Shown here in pieces: positions 3,588 to 62,749 of a stretch of DNA of 64,000 nucleotides. Made by a program: the position numbers and the translations under genes. A model generated the notes under the pieces. The model saw nothing but the letters and a program-made list of their open reading frames with translations. It ran no database searches and was not told where the DNA came from. Source of the stretch: Paludibacteraceae bacterium (GTDB lineage Bacteria; Bacteroidota; Bacteroidia; Bacteroidales; Paludibacteraceae); NCBI GenBank assembly GCA_017509715.1, contig JAFWOU010000029.1, positions 127,838 through 191,837 of the forward strand, in the 5' to 3' direction. Every line of letters starts with the position of its first letter. Within the stretch, counting starts at the first letter, position 1.

Positions 3588-3947
3588 ATGGATGAAGAAC
3601 TTATACAAAGGATATGGGAGAAGGGGACGATTGTACCCAATTATGACCCCAATTTGTTCCGCCAAGATGCTGCCGGAGCGTGGATAGCTCGTGCAGAGTG
3701 GGGGAATGTTCATAGTCCATTAGGATGGGAGGTTGACCATATCTATCCACAATCGAAAGGAGGAACGGATGAGTTATTTAACCTACGTCCGATGCAGTGG
3801 GAAAATAATCGCAGTAAAGGCGATGATTACCCTCGTTATGTAGCGAAAATTGTCTCGAAAGAAAATCGTAATGTAGAAGAGTATACGCCATGTATGGTGG
3901 CGCAAGCAATACAAGAACTAATAGCATCCCATTATGGAAATCATTAA
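3588..3947 (+). CDS. small HNH endonuclease
   Basis: The segment GWEVDHIYPQSKGGTDELFNLRPMQWENNRSKGD carries the H-N-N(H) motif. The start was moved to the first ATG after the promoter. The stop overlaps the next gene by 14 nt. Confidence 0.7.
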   Translation: MDEELIQRIWEKGTIVPNYDPNLFRQDAAGAWIARAEWGNVHSPLGWEVDHIYPQSKGGTDELFNLRPMQWENNRSKGDDYPRYVAKIVSKENRNVEEYTPCMVAQAIQELIASHYGNH

Positions 3948-5226
3948 ACGATTAGATGTAAAGGGTCTTTATGGCTTTTACGACTATTCAATAGATTGTG
4001 CGACCGGAGAACATGTGAAGATTTTAACCGGTCCGAATGGTTATGGTAAGACAACGCTATTGCAGATGATTCACCATTTGCTTGGCGCAGACTTTTGGTA
4101 TTTCTATACGATACCATTTTTGTCGTTTGAGTTGGAATTAGCCAATGGTCGTCGATTCATACTGAAGAAACTTAAGGAAGCGGAAGATTCGGAGGTGGCT
4201 CAAGCATCGATGTCGAATCCTTTGCAGGTGACTTATTTTGAGGGCGAAAAACAGATTGAGCAATATCAGATAGTGCATAATTATATTGATTATCTCAAGA
4301 TTAAAGTCAATTGGAATCAATTACAGAATCAATTGTTTGTAAGTGGAATGAGTTGGGAAGACTTCTTGAAGCAGTATTATCATGCCAATGAAGATCAGTA
4401 CTTACAACAGAAAGGTCCTAACACATTAATGGCTTTACAGGTTGGTCATGCATCTTTGAGTATTGCACGACTTACGCAAGGGCATGTTGATACGCTTATG
4501 CCTAATGGAATGCCATTTAAACGCTATGTGGCTTCGACAGTTGAAGTAAATAATCATCTGCGTAATGAAGATTTTCGTAAGGCGCTTGCAATGTATAATG
4601 AGGTAAGTCAACGATTGGATGCATCGTATATCAAACGTTTGACAGAGATAAAGCCAGAACGGCCTCAAGATGTTGAAATTCAGCAGAAGCGATTGAATGA
4701 GTTGCGTGTTCGTATGGAGCGGATGGCTAAATATGGTTTGACCAAGACAGAGGAGATGATAGATACGATACCGCAGCAGTATTCGGGGACGATTGAACTA
4801 TACATACAAGATACGCAGCAGAAATTAGATGTTATAGAGCCATTTTATAGAAAACTACGTAAATTTGATGACTTGATCAATAGTCGCGCTTTAGCTCATA
4901 AGAAAATGCTATTGTCTCCCAAGGGATTGGTGCTGAAGGATGAGAATAATGTAGAGGTTCCGTTGACGGGATTATCCAGCGGTGAGCAGCATTTGCTGAT
5001 ATTATTCTATCATCTTATCTTCCAGACTCAACCCAATAGTGTTATCTTCATAGATGAGCCTGAGATGTCTATGCATCCGGCATGGTTGGAGGGAATGTTG
5101 CGTGATTTCAAGGAAATCGCTCAGATGAACAAGTTCCAGATTATCTTTGCGACCCATTCTGTGGCATTCATTGATGGCCAATGGAACTTGTCCGACGATT
5201 TGTACAAGTTGCATCGTAAGGCGTAA
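3934..5226 (+). CDS. ariA: ABC-type (AAA_15/21-like) ATPase, AriA-like
   Basis: It has Walker A GPNGYGKTTLLQ, signature LSSGEQ, Walker B VIFIDEPEMSMHP and ATHS. A long helical insertion lies between the lobes. A DUF4435 gene follows immediately. Confidence 0.6.
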   Translation: MEIIKRLDVKGLYGFYDYSIDCATGEHVKILTGPNGYGKTTLLQMIHHLLGADFWYFYTIPFLSFELELANGRRFILKKLKEAEDSEVAQASMSNPLQVTYFEGEKQIEQYQIVHNYIDYLKIKVNWNQLQNQLFVSGMSWEDFLKQYYHANEDQYLQQKGPNTLMALQVGHASLSIARLTQGHVDTLMPNGMPFKRYVASTVEVNNHLRNEDFRKALAMYNEVSQRLDASYIKRLTEIKPERPQDVEIQQKRLNELRVRMERMAKYGLTKTEEMIDTIPQQYSGTIELYIQDTQQKLDVIEPFYRKLRKFDDLINSRALAHKKMLLSPKGLVLKDENNVEVPLTGLSSGEQHLLILFYHLIFQTQPNSVIFIDEPEMSMHPAWLEGMLRDFKEIAQMNKFQIIFATHSVAFIDGQWNLSDDLYKLHRKA

Positions 5227-44763: not shown

Positions 44764-46113
44764 ATGAGACGGAAGATATATGAGCAGTTGGTGCAGTGGA
44801 AAGAACATGAACAAGGACATGTGGCACTGCTGATAGAAGGTGCACGACGCGTGGGGAAGAGTTATATCGTGGAAGAGTTTGCGCAGAAGGAATATAAGAG
44901 TTATATTCTCGTGGACTTTGCGCATATAACGAAACCACTGAAACGTGTGTTCGATGACTATCTGGAGGATACGGATACGTTCCTGTTATACCTGCAACAC
45001 GTCACCGGCAAGAAGCTGTATGCGCGTGAGTCGCTGATCATCTTCGATGAGATCCAGAAATATCCGAGAGCACGTCAAGCTATCAAGCATCTGGTGGCAG
45101 ACGGACGGTATGACTACATAGAGACGGGATCGTTGGTAGGAATAAACAGTCAAGCAGAGGATATACTGGAGCCATCGGAGGAACGTCCGTTGACGCTGTA
45201 TCCGATGGATTTTGAGGAGTGGTTATGGGCAATGGGTGATGAGATGACGATGCCGTTTATCCGAGATTGTTTTGCTCATCAGCGTCCGTTGGGTCCGGTG
45301 CACAGGAAGACGATGGATCTGTTTAGGCAATATTTGATAGTAGGAGGCATGCCGCAAGTGGTGCAGAAATATGTGGAGACGCGTGATTTTCGTGAGGCAG
45401 ATAGGCAAAAGCGTGATATTCTGTCGTTATATAGGCGCAGCATAGGCAAGTACGCAAAGGGATATTCGGAGAAAGTGCGGCAGATATTTGACCAGATACC
45501 GGGAGAGTTGCAGCAGCATGAGAAGCGATTCCGTTTGTCGGACTTGGAAGAAGGAGCGCGGTACAGGAGTTATGAGTCGTCGTTCCTATGGCTTCAGGAT
45601 GCGATGATGACAAACACGTGTTATGCGGTGACGGAGCCGACAGTAGGGATGAAGTTGCGGCGCGTGGATAATGTGTTCAAGAGCTATATGAATGACACGG
45701 GATTATTGTTAGCCCATGCGTTCGACGAGAAAACGATACAAGGAGAGGAACTGTATCAGAAATTGCTGCTGGACAAGCTGGAGATCAACGAAGGGATGCT
45801 GGTGGAGAACATCGTAGCGCAGATGTTTGTGGCGAGTGGGCATAAGTTGTATTTCTACAGCAGTTACGATAAGGAAGACGCATCGAATCGGATGGAGGTA
45901 GATTTTCTGATCGAGAAATCGACGCTGACGAATGCGCACAACATCCATCCGATAGAGGTAAAATCGGGGACGAACTACACGACATCGTCGCTGAATAAGT
46001 TCCTGACGAAATTCAAGGCGCAGTCGGCTCAGCCGTACGTGATTCACAGCAAGGATTGGGAGGTGAAGGACGGAGTGATTTATATGCCGTTCTATATGGT
46101 GGCGCTGTTGTGA
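44764..46113 (+). CDS. AAA ATPase with DUF4143-like C-terminal domain
   Basis: It has Walker A LLIEGARRVGKSY and Walker B-like LIIFDEIQ. The C-terminal VDFLIE...IHPIEVKSG is nuclease-fold-like, as in the AAA_14/DUF4143 family. Confidence 0.65.
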   Translation: MRRKIYEQLVQWKEHEQGHVALLIEGARRVGKSYIVEEFAQKEYKSYILVDFAHITKPLKRVFDDYLEDTDTFLLYLQHVTGKKLYARESLIIFDEIQKYPRARQAIKHLVADGRYDYIETGSLVGINSQAEDILEPSEERPLTLYPMDFEEWLWAMGDEMTMPFIRDCFAHQRPLGPVHRKTMDLFRQYLIVGGMPQVVQKYVETRDFREADRQKRDILSLYRRSIGKYAKGYSEKVRQIFDQIPGELQQHEKRFRLSDLEEGARYRSYESSFLWLQDAMMTNTCYAVTEPTVGMKLRRVDNVFKSYMNDTGLLLAHAFDEKTIQGEELYQKLLLDKLEINEGMLVENIVAQMFVASGHKLYFYSSYDKEDASNRMEVDFLIEKSTLTNAHNIHPIEVKSGTNYTTSSLNKFLTKFKAQSAQPYVIHSKDWEVKDGVIYMPFYMVALL

Positions 46114-46894: not shown

Positions 46895-48403
46895 ATGTAT
46901 ATTCAATCCTTTAAAGCAAAAGGGCAGCATGTGTTTGGTAATTACCAAATCAACATGGATAAGAACGGAAACAAAATCAGTACTTCTGTAGCGGATGCTA
47001 TGGCAGAATCTGAGATTGTGTATGGGAAAGATCCTAAAGGGAAGAATCAATATACATATATTATCGGTGATAATGGCTCCGGAAAGACATCGTTATTAAA
47101 GTCTTTAATTATCGGTATGTTGAGTCAATATACCCAGCATAATTGGACAGAGGTACGATATGGAGGATTATCCTATATGCAATATTTTCATCAGCCATTC
47201 ACTACGTGGGATAAGTATGAAACTGCGAGAATAGGTGGCTGTGAAGCTATAGCCTATTGGGGCAGTCAACGCTTCTTACTTCCCAATAAGAACATTGATA
47301 ATAGGTATTATGAGTACAACTTTGGATACGAAGGAATGAAATTGCCAGTATTGTACACTTTGTTATTGCATAATACTAATTTACCGAAATTAAACAAGTT
47401 GTTAAGAGGAGATGAGGATGTACAATGGCGAGTGGATATAGAATATCTACCACAACCGCACTATGAATATGCTGGATTTGGAGATAAATGGGTTGAGGTG
47501 GATCCTACATTAAAACCTAAGTTGTCTTTATTACTTAAGATGGTTGAAACAGAATTGACTGCGGATATACCACCTCAAGGGGATGATTATCAGGGTTTTT
47601 CAAGTGGAATACTGAATAATCGTTATTTCCCGCGTATTGCAATAAATAACGATAAGTATCGTAAAAAAGTATTTGAACTAATATATCATTCGGTGATATT
47701 TCAAAAGCTTTTGGAAGTGGCACCGTTATTGTTGGCCGAAAAGGAGGATTCCAACAAGCGAATATACGATGGTCGTACTCATTCTGCATATAGGATAGAT
47801 AAGGATATCCTGCAAACACTTGGAGAACATGATTTATGGATATTGCCTCTATTGGCAGATATAGGGGTGGTGCAATATGATATTTTCGTTAATGATGTAC
47901 GATTAGATGAGTTGAGTAGTGGTGAACAAATCATGATACAACTTTTCTGTGATCTTTCACCTATGTGCGTCCTTCATCCAGAGAAGAAAGATTTCTTGAT
48001 TCTATATGATGAACCGGAAACATCGCTGCATCCCAAATGGCAGCAGAAATTTCCGGAGTTATTCAGACAGATAGTAGAGGATTTGTATGGGATAACTGAT
48101 TCTCATTTTATCTTCTGTACACATTCACCGATGATTGTGATGCAAGCTACGCAGTCGGAGAACACATCCGTTATTAGGTTTTCGTATGAAGACAAGGTGT
48201 TTAAGAGCGAGAAAGTGCTGAATATCAATCGTTTCTATGTGGAACAAGTCTTGCTGGATGACTTTGGACTGAATTACTATAAGAAAGAAGAGATAGAGGC
48301 GATGGATAGAAGTATACAGCAGATGTCATTGCCGGATGCAATATATCATACGCAAGAACTGAAGAACAAAATAGACAAATTGTACGCACAAATACTCGAG
48401 TAA
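46895..48403 (+). CDS. ptuA: Septu PtuA-like ABC-type ATPase
   Basis: It has Walker A IIGDNGSGKTSLLKS, signature LSSGEQ, Walker B LILYDEPETSLHP and CTHSP. An HNH partner follows with a 1-nt overlap. Confidence 0.7.
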   Translation: MYIQSFKAKGQHVFGNYQINMDKNGNKISTSVADAMAESEIVYGKDPKGKNQYTYIIGDNGSGKTSLLKSLIIGMLSQYTQHNWTEVRYGGLSYMQYFHQPFTTWDKYETARIGGCEAIAYWGSQRFLLPNKNIDNRYYEYNFGYEGMKLPVLYTLLLHNTNLPKLNKLLRGDEDVQWRVDIEYLPQPHYEYAGFGDKWVEVDPTLKPKLSLLLKMVETELTADIPPQGDDYQGFSSGILNNRYFPRIAINNDKYRKKVFELIYHSVIFQKLLEVAPLLLAEKEDSNKRIYDGRTHSAYRIDKDILQTLGEHDLWILPLLADIGVVQYDIFVNDVRLDELSSGEQIMIQLFCDLSPMCVLHPEKKDFLILYDEPETSLHPKWQQKFPELFRQIVEDLYGITDSHFIFCTHSPMIVMQATQSENTSVIRFSYEDKVFKSEKVLNINRFYVEQVLLDDFGLNYYKKEEIEAMDRSIQQMSLPDAIYHTQELKNKIDKLYAQILE

Positions 48404-49164
48404 TGAAATATGTAGGACGAGAAGAGTTTGAGTGGGAATGCGAGTTGGCTCAGAAAGCATTGCAAAAATACTCAAGTGGGAAGAAATACAATAATGAAGT
48501 CGTACAAAATATGCTACGACAGGTTTACCATGGTTGTTGTGCATATTGCGAGGGAAGAGTAGAGCCAACGGCATATTTTGAGATAGAGCATTATTATCCG
48601 AAAAAGAACAAGAGCCATAGAGAGTATAAGCAATGGGTGACAGAATTTAAGAATCTGCATTATGCATGCCCGAGATGCAATCGATTGAAAGGAAATAAAG
48701 ATCCAAAATTTTATCATATTTTGTCACCGAATTATTACTTTGATAATGGGGGTTGGGTGACGAAACCGAATGAAATAGACAGCAGTTTATACTATGCCGG
48801 ACATAAGGTGTTTGCGAGGAAAGGTTCGCTGCAGGGGGCAGGAACAATAGCTGTGTTCAAACTGAATGAACGTCAGTCGCTGTGGATAGATAGATTGAGG
48901 AAATATGCGGAATGCTACTATTTGATGAATGTGATATATGGATTATTGGGGAAGAGTAGTAAGGAAGTGAAGGATTTGGATAGTGCACTGCAGATTTTAT
49001 TTGGGCAGTTGGTGGCTTATACTAATCCTGATGCGGCTTATTCGACTATGATTGTACAGAACTTTGGCACGGAAATTTGTAAATTGATGAAAGTATGGCA
49101 GTATAAGAGAAATGAGAAAAGTATATGTGAACAATTTCGGAAACGGATAATGGGGATAGCCTAA
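48403..49164 (+). CDS. ptuB: Septu PtuB-like HNH endonuclease (TIGR02646-like)
   Basis: It has CAYCEGRVEPTAYFEIEHYYPKK...NLHYACPRCNRLKGNK. A TAATG overlap joins it to ptuA. Confidence 0.7.
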   Translation: MKYVGREEFEWECELAQKALQKYSSGKKYNNEVVQNMLRQVYHGCCAYCEGRVEPTAYFEIEHYYPKKNKSHREYKQWVTEFKNLHYACPRCNRLKGNKDPKFYHILSPNYYFDNGGWVTKPNEIDSSLYYAGHKVFARKGSLQGAGTIAVFKLNERQSLWIDRLRKYAECYYLMNVIYGLLGKSSKEVKDLDSALQILFGQLVAYTNPDAAYSTMIVQNFGTEICKLMKVWQYKRNEKSICEQFRKRIMGIA

Positions 49165-49335: not shown

Positions 49336-50682
49336 ATGAAGGATATCAGTAAGGAACAAGGGATTTTTATTCTCCGTGTTTATGATGCATGGTGCAAAGA
49401 TCCACGGATTCCAAAGACAGATAATCCGATGAAGTATCTGCATCCGTTCAATCCGGATGAATTTCTTGCGACTTTACCTGTAGATACACCGTTGGACGTG
49501 GCGGTTGATAAGTTAATTCAACATTGTTACGAGCATGGAGGAAGCATAATGCCTCCGGCATATCAGAAACCATATCGTGTTCAAGGAAAGAATGCACAAA
49601 CGTTATACATCATCGGGAACGGATTTGACAGATATCATGGTGCAGAATCTTCTTATTAGCATTTCCGTCAATACTTATTGCGCTGCATGCCTCAGATAGT
49701 CGGTTCATTTGACTTATATTGGGGACCACGAACATTGTCGCGCTCCTTTGAGCACAAGGATGATTATATGCGTTGTCTATTGCCTAATCGGCACAATTAT
49801 CCTCAAAACAAATGGACGGAAGATCATCTGTGGTGTGATTTTGAACGCTATATGGCAGAACTGAACCGGGAGAAAGTGATGACATTGGCTGATATGTATT
49901 TACCACGAGTAGATGAAGGTGAGGAAGGTTTTCGTTATGCAGATTATTATCTACCCATAGACAGAATAAAGGAGCAAATCTACTTTACAACCTTTGAAAT
50001 GCGCTACCGATTTCATAAATGGATAAATACTCTGCATTACGCGAAGGGTTTTCGGAAGAAGATGCTTCCGCTGGATACTGATGCGCTGTTCCTGAATTTC
50101 AACTATACCTTATTCTTGGAATCCGAATACAACGTACCCCAAGAACAGATATGTTACATCCATGGTTCCAGGAGAGACAAGTACGGCAGTTTGGTATTGG
50201 GGCATTCGGAAGATTCCGATTTGGCGTTTAAAAAATGGTATCATAAACATGAGAATGAAGCGCGTTTCCGTCCGAATCTAAAGGATAAGAAAGGACGATG
50301 GTATGCGAATGACAGGTTAACTTATCTGTCGTATTTCATTGAAGACGAGACAAAAGGCAATTGGAGATTACCGATCCGATACTATGCGCAAGAGGCTATA
50401 CAGGAAGCGATAGAAGGTTATTACGAGCAAAGTATGAAGTACACATCCGGTATTATATATCAGAATGCATCATTCTTTGATTCGCTGAAGTATATAAAAA
50501 GGATTGTGGTTGTTGGACATTCATTAGCAGACGTGGATATGCCTTATTTTGAGAAGATTATGGATTCCGTTGACAAAAATAAAGTGCAGTGGGAGATATA
50601 TTACCATACGGATAGAGATATAAAGAATATCAACCATTTCTGTAAGAGATTTGGTGTGTCGGCTCAAACTATGTATTTGTAG
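49336..50682 (+). pseudogene. AbiH-family abortive-infection gene interrupted by one in-frame TAG (49657-49659)
   Basis: ORFs 49336..49659 and 49678..50682 are in the same frame. Reading through gives LYIIGNGFDRYHGAESSY*HFRQYLL, which matches the AbiH N-terminal signature IGNGFD..HG..(T/S)SY..F..YL. Confidence 0.6.
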
Positions 50683-51633: not shown

Positions 51634-53502
51634 ATGTGGTCGGATAAGGAGACATCGAAAGATTTGTTAGGGTTTGGCGTTCATGCGTCATTACTTAAGT
51701 CTGTGGTCACGAATGAAAAGAACTTACCCATTACTATAGGATTATATGGTGATTGGGGAAGTGGTAAATCCAGTGTATTGGAGATACTTAAAGAACAGTT
51801 GAAAGATGAGGAGGGTGCTGTAGTCGTATATTTCGATGGGTGGACTTTTGAAAGTTTTGATGATGCGAAGATAGCTTTAATCCAAGGAATTGTTGATGAA
51901 TTGGAGAGTAATAAGAAATTTTTCTCTAAAGTGGGCGATGGATTAAAGGACTTGAAAGATGATTTTGTTAAATTGAAAGATTCTATCAATTGGATGCGAG
52001 TGTTGAAAGTGACGACCCAGATGGCAATCCCGACAGCTGCGGCGTTTGCAACCGGTGGGGCCTCAATTATTCCAAGTATTGTGTTGGCTCTGAAGAATAG
52101 CAAAGAGGATTTGCAGAACATCATCAATGAAGACAAATTAGAAGAGTTTATTAAGTCAAATATTGCAAAAGGGGAAGAAGAGAAAAAATATCAAGCAGTA
52201 AGAGAATTCCGCAGTGACTTTGAACAATTAATAAAGAAAAGCAAACAGGGGAAAGTCGTTGTGTTAATTGATGACTTGGATCGCTGTTTGCCGCGACATA
52301 TAATAGATAGTTTAGAGGCTATCAAGTTATTCTTAAACGTTCCCGGAACAGCATTTGTGATAGCAGCGGATGAGTATATCGTATCTAATGCTATTAAAAG
52401 CGAGTATAAATCATTGATAGAAGCATCTAACGGAGAGAACAAAAATAGAGAAGACCTAGGCAAATCGTATATGGAGAAGTTTATTCAACTGCCATATCAT
52501 CTGCCGATGTTGAGCAGAAAAGAAGTAGAGACATATGTGACGTTACTCTTCTGTCAATCATTCTTAGATCCGGAAGACTTCGAGAAGATTCAATCTGACT
52601 TTGCAAAATTTGTAGTCAATAATAAGTTCGAAAAATACGGATGGGATAATATAAAAGACATAGTTGATGAGTCAAAATGCGCAGAGTTGTGCGAAACAAT
52701 AGGTTTTGTATCGCATTTCTCATCCATCATCGGTACTGCACTGCGCTGGAATCCCAGACTGATTAAGCGTTTCTTGAATGCCTACGAAATCAGAAAGAGT
52801 TTGTTGGAGGTGTCTGGTTTAGCAACACAAGCCAATAAATTTGCACTTCTCAAGCTAATGTTAATAGAACAGCAACATGTGAATTTATTCCGGACACTCA
52901 ATAGTTGGGTCATGAGCAATGATGGTGCTGAAAATAAGGTTGGGGCATTAGAAGCATCCGTTGAGAAAAATGAATTTTCGGAGGAGTATGCTGAATGGAA
53001 TAAGCCTGAGATAAAGGCGTTGATAGAGAAAGAGCCCAAGTTTAGTTCTATCGATTTGAAAGAATTGTTTTGGGTGTCTAGGGACAATATAATTGATACA
53101 ATGAGTGGCACGACATTGATACCCGCTCGTGTTAAGAAATTGTTTAACGAATGCTACAGTGCATCTTCTGAACCCATTTTGAGAAATCAGTGCGAAGGGC
53201 AAATTAAACTGCTGTCTGCAGATGATTTGAGTGATTTTTATTCGTTATTAGAGGAGAAAACGTTATCTAATCCGGAAGATAAAAAATGTTATCATATATA
53301 TTACTTTTGCGTAATGAGTGATGTGGATTTTGCATATCAGAAACTTTTAGAGATTTTGTCACGAATAGATATACAAAAGATTCCGTTCTCGTTGGGAAAC
53401 AAGTTTAAAGATATTTGCACGAAATATGGCGCAGATACTAAATTGATGACTCTTTTAGAAGCAAATGAATTGTTGATTAAAACAATTAAAACCACAAGAT
53501 AA
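51634..53502 (+). CDS. qatA: KAP-family P-loop NTPase (QatA-like)
   Basis: It has Walker A GLYGDWGSGKSSVL and Walker B VVLIDDLDRCLP, the hallmark of KAP NTPases. Confidence 0.75.
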   Translation: MWSDKETSKDLLGFGVHASLLKSVVTNEKNLPITIGLYGDWGSGKSSVLEILKEQLKDEEGAVVVYFDGWTFESFDDAKIALIQGIVDELESNKKFFSKVGDGLKDLKDDFVKLKDSINWMRVLKVTTQMAIPTAAAFATGGASIIPSIVLALKNSKEDLQNIINEDKLEEFIKSNIAKGEEEKKYQAVREFRSDFEQLIKKSKQGKVVVLIDDLDRCLPRHIIDSLEAIKLFLNVPGTAFVIAADEYIVSNAIKSEYKSLIEASNGENKNREDLGKSYMEKFIQLPYHLPMLSRKEVETYVTLLFCQSFLDPEDFEKIQSDFAKFVVNNKFEKYGWDNIKDIVDESKCAELCETIGFVSHFSSIIGTALRWNPRLIKRFLNAYEIRKSLLEVSGLATQANKFALLKLMLIEQQHVNLFRTLNSWVMSNDGAENKVGALEASVEKNEFSEEYAEWNKPEIKALIEKEPKFSSIDLKELFWVSRDNIIDTMSGTTLIPARVKKLFNECYSASSEPILRNQCEGQIKLLSADDLSDFYSLLEEKTLSNPEDKKCYHIYYFCVMSDVDFAYQKLLEILSRIDIQKIPFSLGNKFKDICTKYGADTKLMTLLEANELLIKTIKTTR

Positions 53503-54329
53503 TGGGTACATCGCATAGACATAAAGCAGGTCCGATAGGATCTCCTAATTGGGGGAAATCATCAGCGGCTGTATCATCCATCGCTAATACAGAAAAAGCA
53601 GACGTACAGTTACAGCAAGATCCTTCGATTGCTATTCCACAAGAGGCGGTGGATAGAAAGCGTGTTGTATATGCAAAACGCATTAATACTCAGTATCATA
53701 ACGCTGTTCGTTATTTGGTACGTGCTGCCGGAGGACGAGCATCTGTAAGTTCAGGTCGCTCCAGAGCCGTAGGTAGAGCCGGTGTTGTATGGGCTACAGG
53801 ATTGGCACATGCTTTTCATGAGATTGCGGAACAGGGGTTAGTTACATGGTTGAACAGAAAGGGCTATAATTTTGGGGTTCCACATGATTGTCGCGAAACG
53901 TTGAATATCATTGAAGGTTTCGTGGTAGAATATTTTGTGGGAATGGATGGTACTGCTGCGAGTGAGGCATTAGAGCATGTGATGGATAAAGTGGAGCAAC
54001 TGGCAGAGGGGCAATCTGAGAAATTGGACGAAATTCTCCAAAAAATTATCAGCGAAGATGAAATAAAGGATTTGATAGATGATTTCTTTGGGATATATAT
54101 CTATAGCCATCTTTCTCAAAATTTCAAAGAGAAGTTAGAGAAGGATAAAGGTGTAGAGATTGCAACAAAAACGATGGATGAAATCAAGGAACTTATTCTT
54201 GATGATGTTCATCGTGGTATATCCGGAAGGCCTGCAAGTCGAGTGGATTGGAGAGGAATAGAAGGGGAACAGTTTATTAAGGATGAGTTCAATCGTATTA
54301 TACTAATTTTGACGAACAATGAGGATTAG
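53502..54329 (+). CDS. qatB: hypothetical protein in the QatB position
   Basis: 275 aa. It overlaps qatA by 1 nt and qatC by 11 nt. The assignment rests on position only. Confidence 0.45.
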   Translation: MGTSHRHKAGPIGSPNWGKSSAAVSSIANTEKADVQLQQDPSIAIPQEAVDRKRVVYAKRINTQYHNAVRYLVRAAGGRASVSSGRSRAVGRAGVVWATGLAHAFHEIAEQGLVTWLNRKGYNFGVPHDCRETLNIIEGFVVEYFVGMDGTAASEALEHVMDKVEQLAEGQSEKLDEILQKIISEDEIKDLIDDFFGIYIYSHLSQNFKEKLEKDKGVEIATKTMDEIKELILDDVHRGISGRPASRVDWRGIEGEQFIKDEFNRIILILTNNED

Positions 54330-55653
54330 AGTATTAGGATATAATGTGACGCGACAGAGGAAGAATGCTTATTTACATGTTTCCTTAGAGATTGAGTTTC
54401 CCGAAGGAAGCCGAACCACGTCGTGTAAGATTAATATATCTGAAATTGGTTACTTCTTCGGCAGAGTTCCAGACTTTGTCACATCGTTCTTGCTTATGTC
54501 TGCGATAGTATACGCAATTGATCGTTCTGTATATCGAGAGAAATACTCTGTGGATGGTTGGTCAAGAGAATTTGAAGTGGATTTTGCTCTTCCTACGGCA
54601 GACATTTTTATGGCTAATAAAGAACATATCGATGGGTTGCTTTCCTATTTGACAGGAGATTATTGGAATTGTAATTTTACTTCATATGTGCTAAATCAAC
54701 TGCCAAGATGGAGAGAATCCCACTATTTTGATGATGTAAAGCAAGTGAATCTTTTTTCTGGAGGAATGGATTCGTTGATAGGTGCTATTGATAGCATGGA
54801 ACGTATGATCGAAGGTACCGTGTTTTTAGCATCACATTACGATGATACAATGGGAGGACCGAAAACTGACCAAAAAAGATTGTTGCATCGTTTTGTCAGT
54901 GCATATAATGGGCGTTATAAGAAGTTTAGTACCCCTGTATTGATCTCACCTGAAGTTTCTTCCGATACGACTTGTCGTTCACGTTCAATGTTATTCATCG
55001 CTATTGCACTGCAAGTTGCCGCATATAGGACTGTGGATATCGTTGTTCCAGAAAATGGCTCTGTCTCGCTTAACTATCCGTTATCTCCTTCGAGAAGGGC
55101 ATCATGTAGTACACGAACTACTCACCCTGTAGTGATAGCCAAATTGAAGAAACTATTAGAAAATGTAGGCATGCCTATCAATATAGTTAATCCCTATGAG
55201 TTTATGACGAAGGGAGAGATGGTACAAGCGTGTGCAAACAGACCATTCTTGTTAGATGTGTTACCTGTATCTAATTCATGTGGGAAGAGAGCAAGAAAGC
55301 AATTCTTTTTAGAAGACCATAGTGCAACGCATTGTGGGCACTGTATGCCTTGTATGTACCGGAAAGCTGCTCTTGTTGGGTATGTTGATAGGAGTAGGTA
55401 TGGGGTGTCTATTCCGCGTTTATACGCAGAACGAATGCACAAAATTTCTGATGATTTCTATGCGATGCTAAATTTCTTAAAGAGAGATCTGACGGATGCC
55501 GAGATAGCACGCGAATTGAGGATCGCAGGTATGGGAGGAATGGATCATTTTGATGATTATGTGCAATTAGTGAAGCGAACTCGCGAGGAACTGAAGCGGT
55601 TGATAAATGCGGAAGGTTCATCTGATACGAAGATATATATAGGTTTATGCTGA
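54319..55653 (+). CDS. qatC: QueC-like PP-loop ATPase (QatC-like)
   Basis: It has the PP-loop NLFSGGMDSLIGA and a C-terminal Cys cluster SNSCGK...HCGHCMPCMYRK, like the QueC zinc site. Confidence 0.65.
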   Translation: MRIRVLGYNVTRQRKNAYLHVSLEIEFPEGSRTTSCKINISEIGYFFGRVPDFVTSFLLMSAIVYAIDRSVYREKYSVDGWSREFEVDFALPTADIFMANKEHIDGLLSYLTGDYWNCNFTSYVLNQLPRWRESHYFDDVKQVNLFSGGMDSLIGAIDSMERMIEGTVFLASHYDDTMGGPKTDQKRLLHRFVSAYNGRYKKFSTPVLISPEVSSDTTCRSRSMLFIAIALQVAAYRTVDIVVPENGSVSLNYPLSPSRRASCSTRTTHPVVIAKLKKLLENVGMPINIVNPYEFMTKGEMVQACANRPFLLDVLPVSNSCGKRARKQFFLEDHSATHCGHCMPCMYRKAALVGYVDRSRYGVSIPRLYAERMHKISDDFYAMLNFLKRDLTDAEIARELRIAGMGGMDHFDDYVQLVKRTREELKRLINAEGSSDTKIYIGLC

Positions 55654-56333
55654 TTGATGCGCATTGCCATATTGACATGTTGAAGAATCCGGAAGCGTAC
55701 TTGCAGAAGCAGGAACGGGATGGGAATATTACTATCGGGATGACGAATTTGCCAAGTCATTTTGAGATGGGGTATCCTTATTTTAGGAATTTGAAGCGTA
55801 GTCGATTGGCATTGGGGTATCATCCATTGATGGTTGCTGTGAATCCGAATGAATTGAGGTGCTTTAAAAAGTATTTGCCGTACACATCATATATCGGTGA
55901 GATTGGATTGGATTTCTCGCGAGAAGGGATAGGGTGCAAAGAGATGCAAATGGAGATGTTGCGAAAGATATTGGAGAGTATATCGGGAGAGCGAAAGATT
56001 GTGAGTGTTCATTCGAGGCGAGCTGAGAAAGAGTTGTATGGCTTGTTGCGTGAGTATGACATAAAGAATGTGATTTTTCATTGGTATGGCGGACCATTAG
56101 GATTGATAAGTGAAATAGAGTCTGCGGGATATTATTTCTCAATCAATGAGGCGATGACATATTCGCAGAAAGGGTGTGCTATTATAAAAAAGATGTCCAG
56201 AAGTCGGATTTTGACTGAGACGGATGCTCCGTATAATGAGAAGAATAACATAGTTGCTATGTTAAGACAAGTGGGCATGAGTGAGGAACTGGTAACGGAG
56301 AATTTTTATAGATTGTTGGAAGGAATTAAATAA
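55647..56333 (+). CDS. qatD: TatD-family metal-dependent hydrolase/DNase (QatD-like)
   Basis: It starts MLIDAHCHID, and has later SVHSR, IFHWY and ETDAPY motifs. Confidence 0.75.
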   Translation: MLIDAHCHIDMLKNPEAYLQKQERDGNITIGMTNLPSHFEMGYPYFRNLKRSRLALGYHPLMVAVNPNELRCFKKYLPYTSYIGEIGLDFSREGIGCKEMQMEMLRKILESISGERKIVSVHSRRAEKELYGLLREYDIKNVIFHWYGGPLGLISEIESAGYYFSINEAMTYSQKGCAIIKKMSRSRILTETDAPYNEKNNIVAMLRQVGMSEELVTENFYRLLEGIK

Positions 56334-56670
56334 TCCACAGATATTCAATAGTGGATAATCATATGTAAGAATCATGTACATTTAGGAATGACAACGGCAT
56401 TGAGAATTAAAAATACGAGAATTGAAGATTTTAGAAAGAATAATTGATGGATAAAATATATAATATATTTCTGTCTAAAAATCTTGTGGTTGAATAAGAG
56501 AAAAATTAGAAGAAGTGGCTTAAGAGAGGAACTTTCCCAAAAAGCAGATAAAGCTTTCAATGAAAGACTCCAGTAGGTAATGAGTCGCAATGTGAATAAT
56601 CATCGTGAGACTATTATAATAAGAAGCACATCAATATCGAAAAGAAAACATATTTAATATCTTTTACATT

Positions 56671-59346
56671 ATGGATACTATGAAGACCAATGAGGACTCC
56701 AACCAACGGACAGATCTTCAACACAAACAACGTACAATAAAAGATCTAATTCGTTTCATTAAGAATGTTAGTTATCGGAATGCAGACAAACATCTGCCGA
56801 CTCCTAATTTTTCTGTTTTATTAGGAGCAGGTGCTTCTGTGACATCAGGCATTCGTTCTGGTCAAGATCTAATTATGCACTGGAAAACAGAAATCTATAA
56901 AGATATGAATGATGCCTCAAATGTAGGTGAATTAACAACAGAGAAGATAAATGCGTTTTTTGACTCTACTCGCTTGGATTGGTATGATAAGTCAAATCCG
57001 TATTCATCTCTTTTTGAAAAGCAATTTGATTTACAACGTCAAAGGAGAATTTTTGTAGAAAAGGAAGTGGCGAATAAAAATCCCTCCATTGGATATGCTT
57101 ATTTAGTAAGATTGATAGATGAAGGGTATTTTAATACTATATTTACAACTAATTTTGACGATTTACTGAATGAGGCATTTTATCGTTATTCACATAGTCG
57201 TCCTATCGTCTGTGCACACGATTCATCAATTACTGGTGTAACGGTGACATCGGAACGGCCTAAAATCATTAAGCTTCATGGCGATTATTTATATGATAAT
57301 ATCAAAACCACATTGCGAGAGACAGAGTCCTTGGAGTCGAATATGCGCATGAAGTTCCAGGAATTTGCTAAGGATTTCGGATTAATTGTGGTGGGATATT
57401 CAGGACAGGATCGTTCCATTATGGATATTTTGACTTATTTATTACAGCATGAGGAGTACTTCAAAAATGGTGTTTATTGGTGTCTCAGGAAACAAGATCT
57501 CTTCCACTTGAGCACTGAACTTAAAAAGTTATTATGGAAGGAACGGGTGTACTATGTCTTAATAGATGGCTTTGATGAGTTAATGGCTGAATTTAATAAT
57601 GATTTGAATAATGGCTCATTACCTATAGATGATTCGTTCCTGAGTTGGAGACATCAAGAAGATACTATTAGAGAACTTACGGAAAATAAATTCCTTAAGG
57701 AATCTAAATCCTATATACTTGAGTCTGCATTTAATCGCCTTAATAAGGAGTTAAATAGTAGTAAGTATAATGATTTTATTAACTATCTTAAGAATATTAA
57801 TGAAAAATCGCGTGATGGAGGAAAGAATAATTCATATAAAAGGCGTCCAGAGAGAAAAAGTTATCTAAGAGACCTTTCGGACGAAGAGAGACAGACTCTT
57901 GAAGAGATGCAGCGTAATATTTTTATGGCGTCTCATAACAGAACTTCTCTGAAAGTTAAAACGCAACTAGAAAACATGGATATTCTTAAAATACCTGATA
58001 GTAAGTATAAATTAGAATTATTGCAATTATACGTAGATAGTCATGAGAATCTAACAGACCAACAAATACAATTATATTTTAATGAACTTATACGTTTGGC
58101 TCCAAAAGAGCAAAAATATTATGTTATAGCTTCTAATCGAATAAAGAATTACCAATTATCTATAAAATATATTGAGGATGCTCTTATGTATTTCCCCAAT
58201 GATGCATTTGTTCATGAGCAAATAGCAGAATTATTAATTGAACATTTCGAAGATGCAGGTGCAGCAACATTGGAAGATTTGCAGAAAGCAGAGGGGCATA
58301 TCCAAAGAAGTATCGAGTTAGATGGTAGTGTAAGAAATGATGCATATGGATATCAGGCTCGTTTATATAAATTCAAATATAAAAATGATATTCAAATATT
58401 GAAAAGTAAACAAGATGAATTATGCACGAAGCTATTAGAACAAGATCCTCACCATCCCAATGTATTATACGTTCTCAATCTGTGCAATAAACTAACAGAG
58501 AAGACTATAAAAGAAAGCATAGACTTTTACGCAAAGGCTGATGATAATATTTCTCTTGAAAAATGCTATATGCATTTGTTAGATTTATATGCTGAAGGCT
58601 CAACATATTCTTTCTCTGATATTTCGCAAATTTTTGCAGAATATGAATCACAATTTGAGCCATCTTCAAGTTATCAGATGAGAAAAGGAATGTTGTTAGT
58701 TCAATATGAATATTTGCAAGATGCAGTAGATATTTTTGAATCTCTCGAAGAAACTGAACGAGTTATCATACAAAAATTGAAATGTTATGCATATTTAGAG
58801 CAAAAAGATAAATTTGAAAGTTTATACAATAAAGCAAATAAAACGCCAGTAATCCAAAAGGCTTATTATGAGTTCTCAAATCAATACGAAGAGTTGAAAG
58901 AATATATTAAAACTAACGAACCGATAACATCAGAGAGCTCTATTGGGGAAGTGTTAGAATATGTATTTATATTACTGAAGGTTGGTGATTTCGCTGAAGT
59001 GGAAAGAATATTGAAACCATATTATGACTCTCCACAGTATTGTAATGGAGTTATAATAATAAACTATTTGTTCGCACGTCAAAAACTAGGCAAGAATGTA
59101 GATGGTCAAATAAGAAATAAGATAATAGATTCAAAATATATCCAGTATGAGGACCTCGAGAAAATAGGTGCCTATGGTGTGCTTGGAGATAAGCAAGAAA
59201 TGTATAAGCACCTCAGTAGACTTCTTAAACAGAAGCCGATATTTAAATATAGTATTGATACATGGCCGATAATGGACAAATATAGAAATGAAGAAAAATA
59301 TATTAGTTTTATGAAAAGAAATCCTCAAAGTTTGCGTGAGATATAG
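56671..59346 (+). CDS. SIR2-like (SIR2_2) domain protein with a long C-terminal helical-repeat (TPR-like) region
   Basis: It has VLLGAGASVTSGIRSG, IFTTNFDDLLNEAF and IIKLHGDY. About 550 residues of helical-repeat-like sequence follow. Confidence 0.7.
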   Translation: MDTMKTNEDSNQRTDLQHKQRTIKDLIRFIKNVSYRNADKHLPTPNFSVLLGAGASVTSGIRSGQDLIMHWKTEIYKDMNDASNVGELTTEKINAFFDSTRLDWYDKSNPYSSLFEKQFDLQRQRRIFVEKEVANKNPSIGYAYLVRLIDEGYFNTIFTTNFDDLLNEAFYRYSHSRPIVCAHDSSITGVTVTSERPKIIKLHGDYLYDNIKTTLRETESLESNMRMKFQEFAKDFGLIVVGYSGQDRSIMDILTYLLQHEEYFKNGVYWCLRKQDLFHLSTELKKLLWKERVYYVLIDGFDELMAEFNNDLNNGSLPIDDSFLSWRHQEDTIRELTENKFLKESKSYILESAFNRLNKELNSSKYNDFINYLKNINEKSRDGGKNNSYKRRPERKSYLRDLSDEERQTLEEMQRNIFMASHNRTSLKVKTQLENMDILKIPDSKYKLELLQLYVDSHENLTDQQIQLYFNELIRLAPKEQKYYVIASNRIKNYQLSIKYIEDALMYFPNDAFVHEQIAELLIEHFEDAGAATLEDLQKAEGHIQRSIELDGSVRNDAYGYQARLYKFKYKNDIQILKSKQDELCTKLLEQDPHHPNVLYVLNLCNKLTEKTIKESIDFYAKADDNISLEKCYMHLLDLYAEGSTYSFSDISQIFAEYESQFEPSSSYQMRKGMLLVQYEYLQDAVDIFESLEETERVIIQKLKCYAYLEQKDKFESLYNKANKTPVIQKAYYEFSNQYEELKEYIKTNEPITSESSIGEVLEYVFILLKVGDFAEVERILKPYYDSPQYCNGVIIINYLFARQKLGKNVDGQIRNKIIDSKYIQYEDLEKIGAYGVLGDKQEMYKHLSRLLKQKPIFKYSIDTWPIMDKYRNEEKYISFMKRNPQSLREI

Positions 59347-59478
59347 AATGTAAAAAACATAATTGATTGATTTGTTGTAACTTTATATGCGACATTTTGT
59401 GCGAAAATGTATGCACGCAAAATAGAAAAAGGCTCATATCATCGCGCATAAGTTTGAACAAAAAGTAAGAAAATAAGG

Positions 59479-60885
59479 ATGAGTTATTATAGTACACATT
59501 TTGGAGTGAAACACTCGGCATTTGTAGAAGCAGGAGTGTTTGATGGTCAGATAGGGGAAGATGCATCAATGCACATTAATCCGCTTATGCTTCGTAACTG
59601 CAAAGAAGCGGAGTTTGATGGAGCATATGAGGAGTTCTTGGCATACTTCAAACCGATTATGGATTTAGCTAAGCATGTCCAAAATGTAACGAGGAACGAT
59701 AGGTGTTTTCGTCAAATATGTGTGCGATTTCAATTCAAAGAGTTGCCCAATACCGGACTTGGATATGCGACAAACGGAAGTCATGGCAACGGGATTAGCG
59801 GTAAATTAGCACAACAGTTGGCTATAAATGCGATAGAGATTGTACGATTAGGGATAGAAGATCCAACTATATTTGCTTTATTGCCCCTATTTGAAGAAGG
59901 AATAGGAGCAGATAGGATAAGTGATATGACTATAACCATCCTATATAAGCGATTTTTAGCATATACAGCGCGCAAGGCTAAGGAATTATCCCTGCCGACA
60001 ATATTATTCGTTAACAAAACACAACAGGAGCGTTATCTCCTCCCACACTATAAGCGTAAATGTATGGTGCTAATCCCGGCATCTATTCTATCGGATTTGC
60101 CGATGGCTTCAGATCCGGCAGATATAGACCATGTGAGTGGCTATAATAGCAGTTTGCGTAAAATTATTTGCGAGGCTATTGGGCTTACATGGAAAGATTA
60201 TGAGGATATGCATAAATCTGATTTAAAACGAGAGTTGTTAGCAGATGCGGAACGGTTAGAGGGTATATTGAGTAAAGTATCGGTAGCGACATTCCAACCA
60301 TATGATTTTACAAGAGATGGAAAGCTAAAGTATCTATATCCATTTATTAAGGAAAATATCATTGAGCCAAATCCATTAAAACTTCCTGAGGTAACAGAAC
60401 GGAATGTAATGGATGTAGTTATGCAAATTTGTACACAGTTCAAAGACTTGATAGAGGTGCATCGTATGAGTGTTTTGTTATACAAAGATGGTAAACCACA
60501 AAAAGAGGATGTAGTACAACGGCTATTTTATTGTATAGCAACATCTTATTGTGATGCTAATGATATTGACATCAATAGAGAGTCCGATTCGGGATGTGGT
60601 GAGCTAGATTTCAAGTTTTCCGTAGGTGCTCATAAAAAGGTAATTATTGAAGTGAAGTTATCTGGAAATAATCAACTTGTACATGGTTTAACAACTCAAT
60701 TGCCCATTTATATGGAAGCAGAGAATACTCAAGAGGGTATATATATGGTTATGCGTATGTCGCCAAAGGATGATAATGAGATCGAAAAAGTAATTGAAGT
60801 GCATAAAAAGATGTCAGACGATACGACGAAACCACGATTATTAATTATTGATGCCGTACCGAAACCAAGTGCAAGTAAGGCTTAA
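59479..60885 (+). CDS. hypothetical protein with a C-terminal PD-(D/E)XK-like nuclease motif
   Basis: 468 aa. The C-terminal segment ...GCGELDFKFSVGAHKKVIIEVKLSG fits the D ... E-x-K restriction-endonuclease-like core. The N-terminal ~350 aa were not recognised. Confidence 0.5.
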   Translation: MSYYSTHFGVKHSAFVEAGVFDGQIGEDASMHINPLMLRNCKEAEFDGAYEEFLAYFKPIMDLAKHVQNVTRNDRCFRQICVRFQFKELPNTGLGYATNGSHGNGISGKLAQQLAINAIEIVRLGIEDPTIFALLPLFEEGIGADRISDMTITILYKRFLAYTARKAKELSLPTILFVNKTQQERYLLPHYKRKCMVLIPASILSDLPMASDPADIDHVSGYNSSLRKIICEAIGLTWKDYEDMHKSDLKRELLADAERLEGILSKVSVATFQPYDFTRDGKLKYLYPFIKENIIEPNPLKLPEVTERNVMDVVMQICTQFKDLIEVHRMSVLLYKDGKPQKEDVVQRLFYCIATSYCDANDIDINRESDSGCGELDFKFSVGAHKKVIIEVKLSGNNQLVHGLTTQLPIYMEAENTQEGIYMVMRMSPKDDNEIEKVIEVHKKMSDDTTKPRLLIIDAVPKPSASKA

Positions 60886-60947
60886 AACACCAAAAATCGT
60901 TCTTTTCATTACAAAAGTAAGAAATATTAAAGAAATTGGGTGAAAAA

Positions 60948-60979
60948 TTTGGAGAATTGAAATAAATGTAGTAATTTTG
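60948..60979 (+). promoter_or_regulatory. Bacteroides-type promoter: TTTG-N20-TAatTTTG
   Basis: TTTG lies at 60948-60951 and TAATTTTG at 60972-60979. Confidence 0.6.
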
Positions 60980-61022
60980 CAGCGGATTTGCAATTTATAA
61001 TTGATGTGTGATAAATAGCAAA

Positions 61023-61976
61023 ATGGATGTTAACGTACGAAATATCAGCGAATACATCGAGAAAATGGTAGGTGCAGAAGTGCAGATCGAGCCATTAGAT
61101 AAGGCTAAAAGGCAAGCACTTCCGGTTCTGATTACGAATGCCTATCAGTTGCTGCAATGTCAGTTGCTGGGTGCGGAGGTGAGTCTGATGGTTTGCAAGG
61201 ATGCCAATGCGACACCGATGCAACTGAAAAAGCATTGTGCGATAGTAGAAAGGGCATTGGAGATGCATGCTGCTGTGGTGCTGCCGGAAGTGAAGCCGTA
61301 CAACATGAAGCGGTTGGTGGATGCACGAGTGAACACGATTGTTCCGGGACGTCAGTTGTTCCTGCCTTCGCTGCTGATGGATCTGCGTGTACAACGTAAT
61401 CCGGTGGATATGGTAGGCAAACCGATGCCGGTGATGGCACAAGTGGTTGTGCTATACCATCTACAGAAGCATAGTCTGAACTGGATGTCGGCTCAGCCTA
61501 TTGCAGAGTTGATGGACGTATCGTACCCGAACATCAATCGCGCTGTGAAATGGTTGGCAGACAATGGGTTTGTTGAGTTGAGTCTAGGCCGTGAGAAGCA
61601 GATGCAGTTCATCCATGAAGGTAAGGAACTATGGGAGCAAGCGTTGCCGGTGCTGCAGAGTCCGATTGAGCGTGTGCTACGAACGGATCGAATGTTGGAT
61701 GCGTATGTTTGCGGAGAGGAGGCGTTGGCTGAGTTGACGATGTTGGCAGAACCGCAGGAACGGCATTGGGCCATTACGAAACAGGAAGCGCAACAGTTGG
61801 GTGCGGAGTTGCACAAGGAGTTTGGTGAGCATGTGGTGGAGGTTTGGCGCTATAATCCGAAGTTGATGGGAGAGAACGGGATGGTGGATAGGCTGTCGTT
61901 GTATTTGTCGCTACGGGACACAGAGGATGAGCGGGTAAGGAAAGAGGTAAAAGGATTGGTAATTGGTAAATGGTAA
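61023..61976 (+). CDS. winged-helix protein, AbiEi-like antitoxin/regulator candidate
   Basis: SAQPIAELMDVSYPNINRAVKWLADNGFVEL is MarR/wHTH-like. It is directly coupled to the downstream nucleotidyltransferase-fold gene by a 7-nt overlap. Confidence 0.4.
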   Translation: MDVNVRNISEYIEKMVGAEVQIEPLDKAKRQALPVLITNAYQLLQCQLLGAEVSLMVCKDANATPMQLKKHCAIVERALEMHAAVVLPEVKPYNMKRLVDARVNTIVPGRQLFLPSLLMDLRVQRNPVDMVGKPMPVMAQVVVLYHLQKHSLNWMSAQPIAELMDVSYPNINRAVKWLADNGFVELSLGREKQMQFIHEGKELWEQALPVLQSPIERVLRTDRMLDAYVCGEEALAELTMLAEPQERHWAITKQEAQQLGAELHKEFGEHVVEVWRYNPKLMGENGMVDRLSLYLSLRDTEDERVRKEVKGLVIGKW

Positions 61977-62749
61977 TTAGTGATATGATAACGGGATTGG
62001 AATTGTTTAAGGAGCGGTTTGCGGCATATGCGGACAGTTATGTGCTAATCGGAGGTGCGGCATGTTATGTGCATGAAGAGGCGGGTGCTCAGATGCCACG
62101 TGCCACAAAGGATCTGGATGTAGTGCTGGTGGTAGAGGCGTTGTCAGCTGATTTTGTGCGTGAGTTTTGGCAGTTTGCGCGTGAAGGAGGCTATGAACGT
62201 CGTCAACGAAGCGCTGACAAACATGAGTGTTTCCGCTTCCTTAAACCGCAAGACAAGCGTTATCCGAAGCAAATTGAGTTGTTTGCACGTGCCATAGGGG
62301 TGCTGCATATTCCTGACGATGCTCATTTGGAGCCTATACCGGCAGAGGATGAGTTGTCAAGTCTGTCGGCAATATTGATGAACGAGAGTTATTATCGTTT
62401 TACGATAGCGCATAGTCGGTTGGAGGACGGATTGCATGTGGCAAATGCGGAGGCGCTGATATGCTTGAAGGCGAAGGCGTACAATGATTTGCGTGCACGG
62501 AAAGAGCAAGGAGGCGATGTGGATTCGGATGATATAGAGAAGCATAAGAAAGATGTGTTCCGCTTGGCACCGATGCTGACGGAAGGAGCACGATATGCGT
62601 TGCCGGAGGAGATGGAGGCTGATATGCGGGAGTTTGTGGCGAGAGTGGCTGAGGAGTTGCCGAATGAGGATTTTCTGCGTGCCGTAGGACTTGGTGCGCA
62701 ACGTGTGGAAGGATTGCTAGATGTGCTGAAAAGAGCGTATTTGGAATGA
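61970..62749 (+). CDS. nucleotidyltransferase-fold protein, AbiEii/AbiGii-like toxin candidate
   Basis: LIGGAACYVHEE...RATKDLDVVL fits the pol-beta NTase pattern G-G/S ... D-x-D. It is 259 aa. Confidence 0.45.
   Translation: MVISDMITGLELFKERFAAYADSYVLIGGAACYVHEEAGAQMPRATKDLDVVLVVEALSADFVREFWQFAREGGYERRQRSADKHECFRFLKPQDKRYPKQIELFARAIGVLHIPDDAHLEPIPAEDELSSLSAILMNESYYRFTIAHSRLEDGLHVANAEALICLKAKAYNDLRARKEQGGDVDSDDIEKHKKDVFRLAPMLTEGARYALPEEMEADMREFVARVAEELPNEDFLRAVGLGAQRVEGLLDVLKRAYLE

Follow-up and report, generated by a model that had tools for sequence, protein, structure and literature searches.

The analysed window is a stretch of 64,000 nucleotides (nt) of contig JAFWOU010000029.1 (positions 127,838 to 191,837, forward strand) of a Paludibacteraceae bacterium (GenBank assembly GCA_017509715.1). 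It carries two adjacent, co-directional open reading frames (ORFs), encoding (i) an 891-aa protein with an N-terminal SIR2 domain followed by TPR-like repeats (the SIR2-repeat protein) and (ii) a 468-aa protein of the DUF8370/DUF8371 family with a PD-(D/E)xK-like core. The coordinates of both ORFs (Table 1) and the 132-nt gap between them (59347-59478), as given in a first-pass annotation of this DNA, were confirmed. Each protein has hundreds to thousands of full-length homologs, and the two ORFs are therefore considered genuine genes rather than chance ORFs. The first-pass annotation had proposed that they constitute a two-gene SIR2 + nuclease defence system. Our comparisons led to a different view: the genes are likely to be independent single-gene defence cassettes, a DSR2-like NADase (cassette 1) and a standalone nuclease (cassette 2), which became adjacent through shuffling.

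Distribution and boundaries of the two genes

The presence of the partner gene was examined from both sides. The set of loci containing a homolog of the 468-aa protein comprised 73 loci from a scan in which each species was represented by a single genome (Bacteroidota, Campylobacterota, Cyanobacteria, Chloroflexota, Pseudomonadota, Bacillota, lineages of the candidate phyla radiation and one archaeon) and 13 further loci of the same family, 86 altogether. A tblastn search with the SIR2 protein detected no SIR2 gene within 10 kb of the homolog in any of the 86 loci, nor was there any match of a SIR2-domain hidden Markov model (HMM), which scored above 560 bits with 14 out of 14 positive controls. 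The SIR2-repeat set comprised 35 loci, 21 of them from metagenomes, and the HMM of the 468-aa family matched none of these at E ≤ 1. All positive controls of these tblastn and HMM comparisons were recovered. Within the sets compared, the neighbourhood of the pair is thus not conserved, and neither gene accompanies the other outside this island.

Adjacency of the two genes was limited to four assemblies, each carrying the entire island and a 100% identical SIR2 protein, and these assemblies therefore represent one lineage. Near-identical copies of either gene exist without the other. The 468-aa gene has a 97%-identical copy in six contigs; what precedes it there is always a Fic-like_C fragment together with an ORF of 55 aa, and never a SIR2 gene. 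Homologs with 73, 59 and 43% identity, likewise with no SIR2 neighbour, border on a HipA, radical-SAM or GIY-YIG gene where capsule loci end. Copies of the SIR2-repeat gene with 89 and 86% identity have an AAA_21+RloB pair 460-720 nt downstream, whereas at 45 and 44% identity the next gene codes for superoxide dismutase (SodFe) or is a convergent FabH gene.

Nucleotide sequence comparisons (blastn) placed the ends of both cassettes almost at the ORF termini. The region shared with SIR2-repeat loci lacking the partner spans positions 56643-59351, ending 5 nt past the stop codon, and the region shared with 468-aa loci lacking SIR2 spans positions 59462-60989, beginning 17 nt before the ATG. The junction of ~110 nt that separates them is common neither to the relatives of the SIR2-repeat gene nor to those of the 468-aa gene; it occurs in this island alone. 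No repeats or att-like sites were found at the cassette junctions. The GC content also differs, being 0.326 for the SIR2-repeat gene, 0.380 for the 468-aa gene and 0.50 for the AbiE-like gene pair located further downstream.

A single system, in which the SIR2-repeat protein would serve as sensor and NADase and the nuclease-like protein as effector (or both as effectors), would fit the co-directional arrangement of the genes over so short a distance, the defence-like character of both and the retention of their adjacency in four assemblies. The last of these points comes from one lineage only, and the pair is not accepted as a two-gene system because every case of co-occurrence is a copy of one and the same island. 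Together with the partner-less copies, the boundaries lying 5-17 nt from the ORFs and the unequal GC content, this makes a joint system extremely improbable. The proposed pairing, if true, would have provided a new SIR2 partner; its rejection spares follow-up effort.

The statement of the first-pass annotation that no consensus promoter lies between the genes proved shaky. The scan for sigma-70 promoters was uninformative (23 sites vs. 24.7 expected), the promoter/terminator scan performing no better than on shuffled sequences, but the junction contains TAAGTTTG (59449-59456), an exact Bacteroidetes-type -7 motif situated 30 nt before the ATG of the 468-aa gene, for which 0.07 occurrences are expected per 143-nt window. 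Judged by its sequence, this is a possible Bacteroidetes -7 promoter element; the motif is not conserved upstream of the 468-aa homologs.

Table 1. Features of the analysed interval and its neighbours (positions refer to the 64-kb window)
Feature	Position	Strand	Description
AAA_14/DUF4143 gene	44764-46113		10.5 kb from the SIR2-repeat gene, with three other systems between
AbiH	49678-50682		upstream of the Qat genes
QatA/B/C/D	51634-56333		upstream of the SIR2-repeat gene; QatA, QatC and QatD recognized by PADLOC
SIR2-repeat gene (cassette 1)	56671-59346	+	ORF; 891 aa
891-aa protein, layout			SIR2 domain, residues ~45-330; low-confidence linker, ~330-400; TPR-like alpha-solenoid, ~400-885
Junction between cassettes	59347-59461		~110 nt; GC 0.295; defined by blastn boundaries and motif scans
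DUF8370/DUF8371 gene (cassette 2)	59479-60885	+	ORF; 468 aa
468-aa protein, layout			N-terminal ~335 aa without recognizable fold; C-terminal ~130 aa with PD-(D/E)xK-like core (E343, D377, E391, K393, Q407)
AbiEi/AbiEii-like pair	61008-62749	+	322 aa with helix-turn-helix (HTH) motif and 259 aa; outside both cassettes
Genes following the 468-aa gene			in order: HTH protein, AbiEii-like protein, metallophosphoesterase (Metallophos)

The SIR2-repeat protein

The 891-aa protein contains the motifs GAGAS (at residue 52), TTNFDD (159) and KLHGDY (201), and is matched by Pfam SIR2_2 over residues 156-290 (E 1.2e-15). In 24 homologs of 44-48% overall identity the SIR2 core (residues ~45-330) is almost invariant and the C-terminal half far more variable; the conserved core includes G52-x-G54-A-S56, T159-T-N161-F-D-D164 and H203-G-D-Y206, in which G52, G54, A55, S56 and the catalytic N161 and H203 are invariant. 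The complete SIR2_2-type signature read from the sequence in the first-pass annotation, with its N/H active site intact, was thus upheld. The same applies to the TPR-like repeats that it placed in the C-terminal part, which were modelled as a solenoid of ~490 aa. The AlphaFold2 (AF2) model (mean predicted local distance difference test score, pLDDT, 76.5) is all-alpha after residue ~330, with a helical or disordered linker (330-400) and regular helix hairpins between residues 400 and 885 (pLDDT 85-95). Foldseek searches with this model retrieved the Sir2 subunit of SPARSA (E 4e-8), DSR2 (E ~2e-6, aligned over the full length) and, as TPR/HAT matches, OGT, PRPF6, CTR9 and TTC7B.

The closest relatives of the SIR2 domain are found among the proteins associated with prokaryotic Argonautes (pAgo). 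The PADLOC models of pAgo-associated SIR2 (Aga_SIR2), including PDLC02419, matched residues 45-324 only (E 2e-65), and SPARSA Sir2 sequences were the sole PDB sequences reached (8jkz; E 9e-22 with the single sequence and 2e-24 with the profile). The motifs carrying N161 and H203 align with FTTNFDD and K(I/L)HGD of SPARSA Sir2. Compared with the SIR2-APAZ protein of SPARSA (PDB 8jkz, 8jl0 and 8in8), the 891-aa protein has a SIR2 domain of the same subfamily (profile match over ~270 residues, ~25% identity in the Foldseek alignment), but beyond this domain the match does not continue (profile positions 6-294 of 558 and 16-306 of 1010), and the C-terminus is a TPR-like solenoid with no APAZ domain. 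Pfam and PADLOC scans of the neighbours of the 891-aa gene in the window revealed no Argonaute gene. On sequence grounds, the SIR2 domain is assigned to the pAgo-associated (SPARSA) subtype.

The overall design of the protein resembles that of DSR2 (defence-associated sirtuin 2) of Bacillus subtilis. DSR2 has a SIR2 NADase with the catalytic residues N133 and H171, and its alpha-solenoid C-terminal domain captures the phage tail-tube protein, which leads to activation (PMC11850899; bioRxiv 10.1101/2021.12.14.472415). Both are single polypeptides with an N-terminal SIR2 domain containing the catalytic Asn and His, followed by a long alpha-solenoid, and genes of the 891-aa type also occur in defence islands and prophages. 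The two differ in that the repeats of the 891-aa protein are TPR/HAT-like, not HEAT-like, and in that it is ~100 aa shorter. No PADLOC DSR model matched it at E ≤ 0.01, and no DSR2 chain was found among PDB sequences by phmmer or profile search. Accordingly, the suggestion that the SIR2 protein might fall within the single-gene DSR-type families was largely borne out, in that it has the character of a DSR-like family encoded by one gene, but at the sequence level nothing beyond the generic SIR2 fold connects it with DSR2, of which it is not a family member. The protein is classified as DSR2-like by design, not by descent. A further comparison concerns Avs5/SIR2-STAND-TPR proteins, which likewise combine a SIR2 effector and a TPR sensor within one protein; the 891-aa protein differs from them by having no STAND/P-loop NTPase module, and no NTPase family was recognized in it by Pfam, PADLOC or NCBIfam scans.

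Links to mobile elements were also detected. The protein matches phrog_14359 (E 8.5e-133), and related SIR2 domains (51 and 33% identity, respectively) are encoded in a Vibrio prophage and in Haloferax virus Halfgib1, in both at a prophage-accessory-type position; the viral protein is annotated as a 'tetratricopeptide repeat protein'. No literature on SIR2-TPR, or on SIR2, TPR and Bacteroides in combination, was found under those names.

By analogy with the systems discussed above, we infer that the 891-aa protein is a single-protein, NAD+-depleting sensor-effector. In the mechanism proposed, the variable TPR-like solenoid would bind a phage protein, this binding would release or assemble the conserved SIR2 domain (N161, H203), and the activated domain would hydrolyse NAD+, halting phage replication (abortive infection).

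A partner on the opposite side of the SIR2-repeat gene was also considered. A gene encoding an AAA_14/DUF4143 ATPase is located 35-90 nt upstream of the SIR2-repeat gene, on the same strand, in 10 of the 35 loci (L015-L018, L106, L109, L111 and L115-L117), and is retained in L018 although the region farther upstream differs. If the SIR2-repeat protein needed such an ATPase, the corresponding gene in the window would be that at 44764-46113. All ten loci, however, belong to a single subclade (Bacteroides finegoldii type), whose SIR2 proteins share 80-99% identity with each other and ~44% with the window copy (the ATPases being 83-100% identical), and in other clades the upstream position is taken by a glycosyltransferase, RhuM or GmrSD_N gene. 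Moreover, the AAA_14 protein of the window shares only 25% identity over 136 aa and is encoded at a distance, behind other systems (Table 1). A general requirement for this ATPase is therefore very unlikely; in the B. finegoldii-type subclade the two genes may form a lineage-specific two-gene arrangement. A link between the SIR2-repeat gene and the upstream QatABCD genes was considered separately and rejected: among the loci examined, no homolog of the SIR2-repeat gene adjoins Qat genes elsewhere.

The DUF8370/DUF8371 protein

No Pfam match was obtained with the 468-aa protein itself. Its homologs carry two precomputed Pfam entries, both recent, PF28123 (DUF8370) and PF28130 (DUF8371). A family profile search yielded 3267 representative clusters, nearly all of ~470 aa and with both domains, none of which is a fusion to SIR2. 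The protein is also a full-length match to phrog_30194 (E 4.5e-85); despite this membership, a tblastn search of GenBank phages gave no match.

The C-terminal part of the protein contains the motifs GELDFKF (at residue 374) and IIEVKLS (389). Residues E343, Q347, D364, R367, E368, G372, G374, D377, K379, E391, K393 and Q407-L-P409 are invariant in 25 homologs with identities down to 39%. In the AF2 model (pLDDT 82.5; predicted template modelling score, pTM, 0.77) the core, modelled with pLDDT ~85-95, consists of helix 343-358, strands 364-366, 378-382 and 386-394, helix 400-414 and strand 420-426. This is the canonical alpha-beta-beta-beta-alpha-beta topology of the PD-(D/E)xK fold, in which strands 2 and 3 bear the motif. 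The local Foldseek matches of high probability (0.84-1.00), obtained with the model of the whole protein, were almost exclusively PD-(D/E)xK enzymes, namely PaqCI (0.93), NucS/EndoMS (0.84) and Mrr-type and other restriction endonucleases, and among the NCBIfam models there were faint matches to BbrUII/HgiDII (E 0.038) and to the C-terminal part of EruA. The D...E-x-K nuclease-like core recognized in the first-pass annotation is thus corroborated by the invariance of D377, E391 and K393, by the topology and by matches that agree with one another, although individually sub-significant. With the family profile, residues 374-430 (D-x-K...E-x-K...LPxY) showed a weak similarity to the nuclease core of human Schlafen-12 (SLFN12; PDB 7lrc), which was considered not significant (E 0.1).

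The N-terminal ~335 residues contain the strongly conserved motifs NTGLGY, G-x-G-I-S-G and EEGIGADRISDM. The first-pass annotation recognized nothing in the N-terminal ~350 aa. This holds as far as known folds are concerned, and Foldseek found no full-length structural homolog of the protein in PDB or BFVD; the one exception comes from PADLOC, where 24 of the 25 family members examined matched the N-terminal part of PDC-M36A (residues ~27-175 only; E 1.7e-5 for the protein of the window and 1.2e-11 for the best member). PDC-M36 is a multi-gene PADLOC candidate, whereas the 468-aa protein resembles only the N-terminal part of its component A, and no PDC-M36B-type match was seen by PADLOC among the scanned neighbours in the window. 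No literature on PDC-M36, PDC-S65 or DUF8370/8371 was found under those names.

In its arrangement of an N-terminal recognition-type domain and a C-terminal D...ExK...Q core, the 468-aa protein resembles Mrr-like/type IV restriction enzymes and the fusions of sensor domains with PD-(D/E)xK nucleases (Can2/Card1). It is also type IV-like in having no cognate methyltransferase in the window. It differs from these proteins in its DUF8370 domain, which has no resemblance to CARF/SAVED or to any known DNA-binding domain. We infer that it is a candidate nuclease acting on its own, either Mrr-like or sensor-gated. The PD-(D/E)xK core (D377, E391, K393) would cut nucleic acid, most likely DNA, under the control of the conserved DUF8370 domain, which may act as a target- or signal-recognition module, as in Mrr-like type IV enzymes or sensor-nuclease fusions.

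The genomic neighbourhoods of the family show no obligatory partner. The commonest neighbours of the 468-aa homologs are subunits of type I restriction-modification (R-M) systems, present within 6 kb in 12 of the 73 genome loci, and in L033, L038, L040, L047 and L063 the homolog abuts hsdM, hsdS or hsdR (≤110 nt, same strand). Further neighbours include N6_N4 methyltransferases and AAA_21/RloB. Such an arrangement is the classic one for a defence gene that has settled within an R-M operon. In two loci from distant genomes (L069, 8089-14040; L051, 5221-11401) the homolog is tightly packed, with gaps of 3-36 nt, with genes for an N6_N4 DNA methyltransferase and an ~880-aa protein; these homologs may act within an R-M-like operon, unlike the solitary copy of the window.

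Alternatively, the 468-aa protein might be a housekeeping or mobile-element protein (a recombination/repair nuclease or a selfish element) that accumulates in variable regions. It has no significant match to a characterised defence protein, its N-terminal domain is of unknown function, and its gene is often found in capsule loci next to mobile-looking genes (Bro-N, Fic fragments, RhuM, 23S_rRNA_IVP). Against this, the family is sporadic and patchy across phyla, is repeatedly encountered as an insertion within type I R-M operons, as well as next to AAA_21/RloB and methyltransferase genes, is distantly related to the defence candidate PDC-M36A and has no integrase or transposase consistently adjacent to it. 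Such a role is therefore unlikely.

Several points weigh against the interpretation of the two genes as independent cassettes for a DSR2-like NADase and a standalone nuclease: (i) the sample on the SIR2 side is the smaller one, its 35 loci representing ~15 non-redundant contexts, several with less than 1.5 kb of downstream sequence; (ii) in the window 132 nt separate the two genes, which share one direction, so that co-transcription, and hence coincidental co-regulation, is possible; (iii) outside the SIR2 domain, the similarity to DSR2 is confined to architecture (11-13% identity, TM ~0.19); (iv) the SIR2 domain of the 891-aa protein was modelled with only moderate confidence (pLDDT 35-85, pTM 0.53); (v) the nuclease matches of the 468-aa protein are below conventional significance, the best Foldseek E values being 1.9e-3 (BFVD) and 4.6e-2 (PDB); (vi) Pfam Mrr_cat is matched weakly, and by only 3 of 25 family members (best E 0.0046); and (vii) the sensor role of DUF8370 is a guess, since this domain matches nothing.

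The surrounding island

The Qat and AbiH neighbours named in the first-pass annotation were verified. Between QatA and QatC there is a 275-aa ORF (53502-54329) at the position of QatB, which was matched by no PADLOC, Pfam or NCBIfam model and is probably a divergent QatB.

Almost all ORFs of the window, and nearly all of those of at least 200 aa, are located on the + strand. The region between 12 and 42 kb encodes polysaccharide-biosynthesis enzymes (a DegT aminotransferase, an Alg9-like glycosyltransferase and a UDP-glucose dehydrogenase) and has the appearance of a capsule locus. It is followed, at 44-64 kb, by co-directional defence-like cassettes: AAA_14/DUF4143, AAA_15/21+HNH, AbiH, QatABCD, SIR2-TPR, DUF8370/71, the AbiE-like pair and Metallophos. 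The defence island lies at the far end of a polysaccharide-biosynthesis locus of the same direction in a Bacteroidales-like genome. Because homologs of both the SIR2-repeat gene and the 468-aa gene are found elsewhere inside or adjoining capsule loci, the long operons of such loci may carry defence cassettes, with transcription reading through them.

Replacement of one cassette allele by another is seen cleanly in the gene pair downstream of the 468-aa gene. Wherever the 97%-identical 468-aa copy occurs (six contexts), it is followed, as in the window, by genes for an HTH protein (~318 aa), an AbiEii-like protein (~255 aa) and a metallophosphoesterase, which might suggest that the 468-aa protein and the AbiEi/AbiEii-like pair form a three-gene module. 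In L019 the AbiE-like proteins share 87% aa identity with those of the window, but in L020-L024 a different allele (30 and 45% identity) is present between flanks, the 468-aa gene and Metallophos, that are more than 91% identical (92-98%). The breakpoints of this swap map to position 60989, ~100 nt after the 468-aa gene, and to position 62747, at the start of the Metallophos gene. Relatives of either AbiE-like protein were found in 0 of 80 other loci with 468-aa homologs, and the GC content changes between the 468-aa gene (0.38) and the pair (0.50). AbiE pairs are self-contained toxin-antitoxin modules. On these grounds, a three-gene module is highly improbable.

Pairs of an AAA_15/AAA_21 gene with RloB or HNH also recur in these islands. 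They were observed downstream of 86-89%-identical SIR2-repeat genes (L008, L025-L027), upstream of 468-aa homologs (L030, L036) and twice in the window (3934-5226 and 46895-49164), which suggests that they are another very mobile cassette type.

With its sharp boundaries, a GC content that differs by cassette and the swapped AbiE-like allele, the region is a mosaic of individually exchangeable cassettes. The locus illustrates the exchange, inside co-directional polysaccharide loci, of defence cassettes whose ends nearly coincide with the ORF ends. A more far-reaching proposal, which we put forward tentatively and with more doubt than confidence, has two separate parts: (i) that the fusion of a pAgo-type SIR2 domain to a TPR sensor is a DSR-like NADase of independent origin that recognizes a protein of gut phages, and (ii) that DUF8370 is a sensor or recognition module of a novel type, with no detectable structural relative, which, coupled to the Mrr-like nuclease, makes up a widespread family of single-protein defence nucleases (>3000 clusters in many bacterial phyla and one archaeal metagenome-assembled genome) carried within type I R-M operons and the capsule loci of Bacteroidales.

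The SIR2-TPR protein would be a further case of modular effector/sensor swapping, in which a pAgo-type SIR2 effector is re-used with a repeat sensor, and its family is well represented among Bacteroides of the human gut, a group with few tested defence systems. The DUF8370/71 proteins form a large family of wide phylogenetic range that is embedded in R-M loci, and the half of the protein without a recognizable fold is the most intriguing part.

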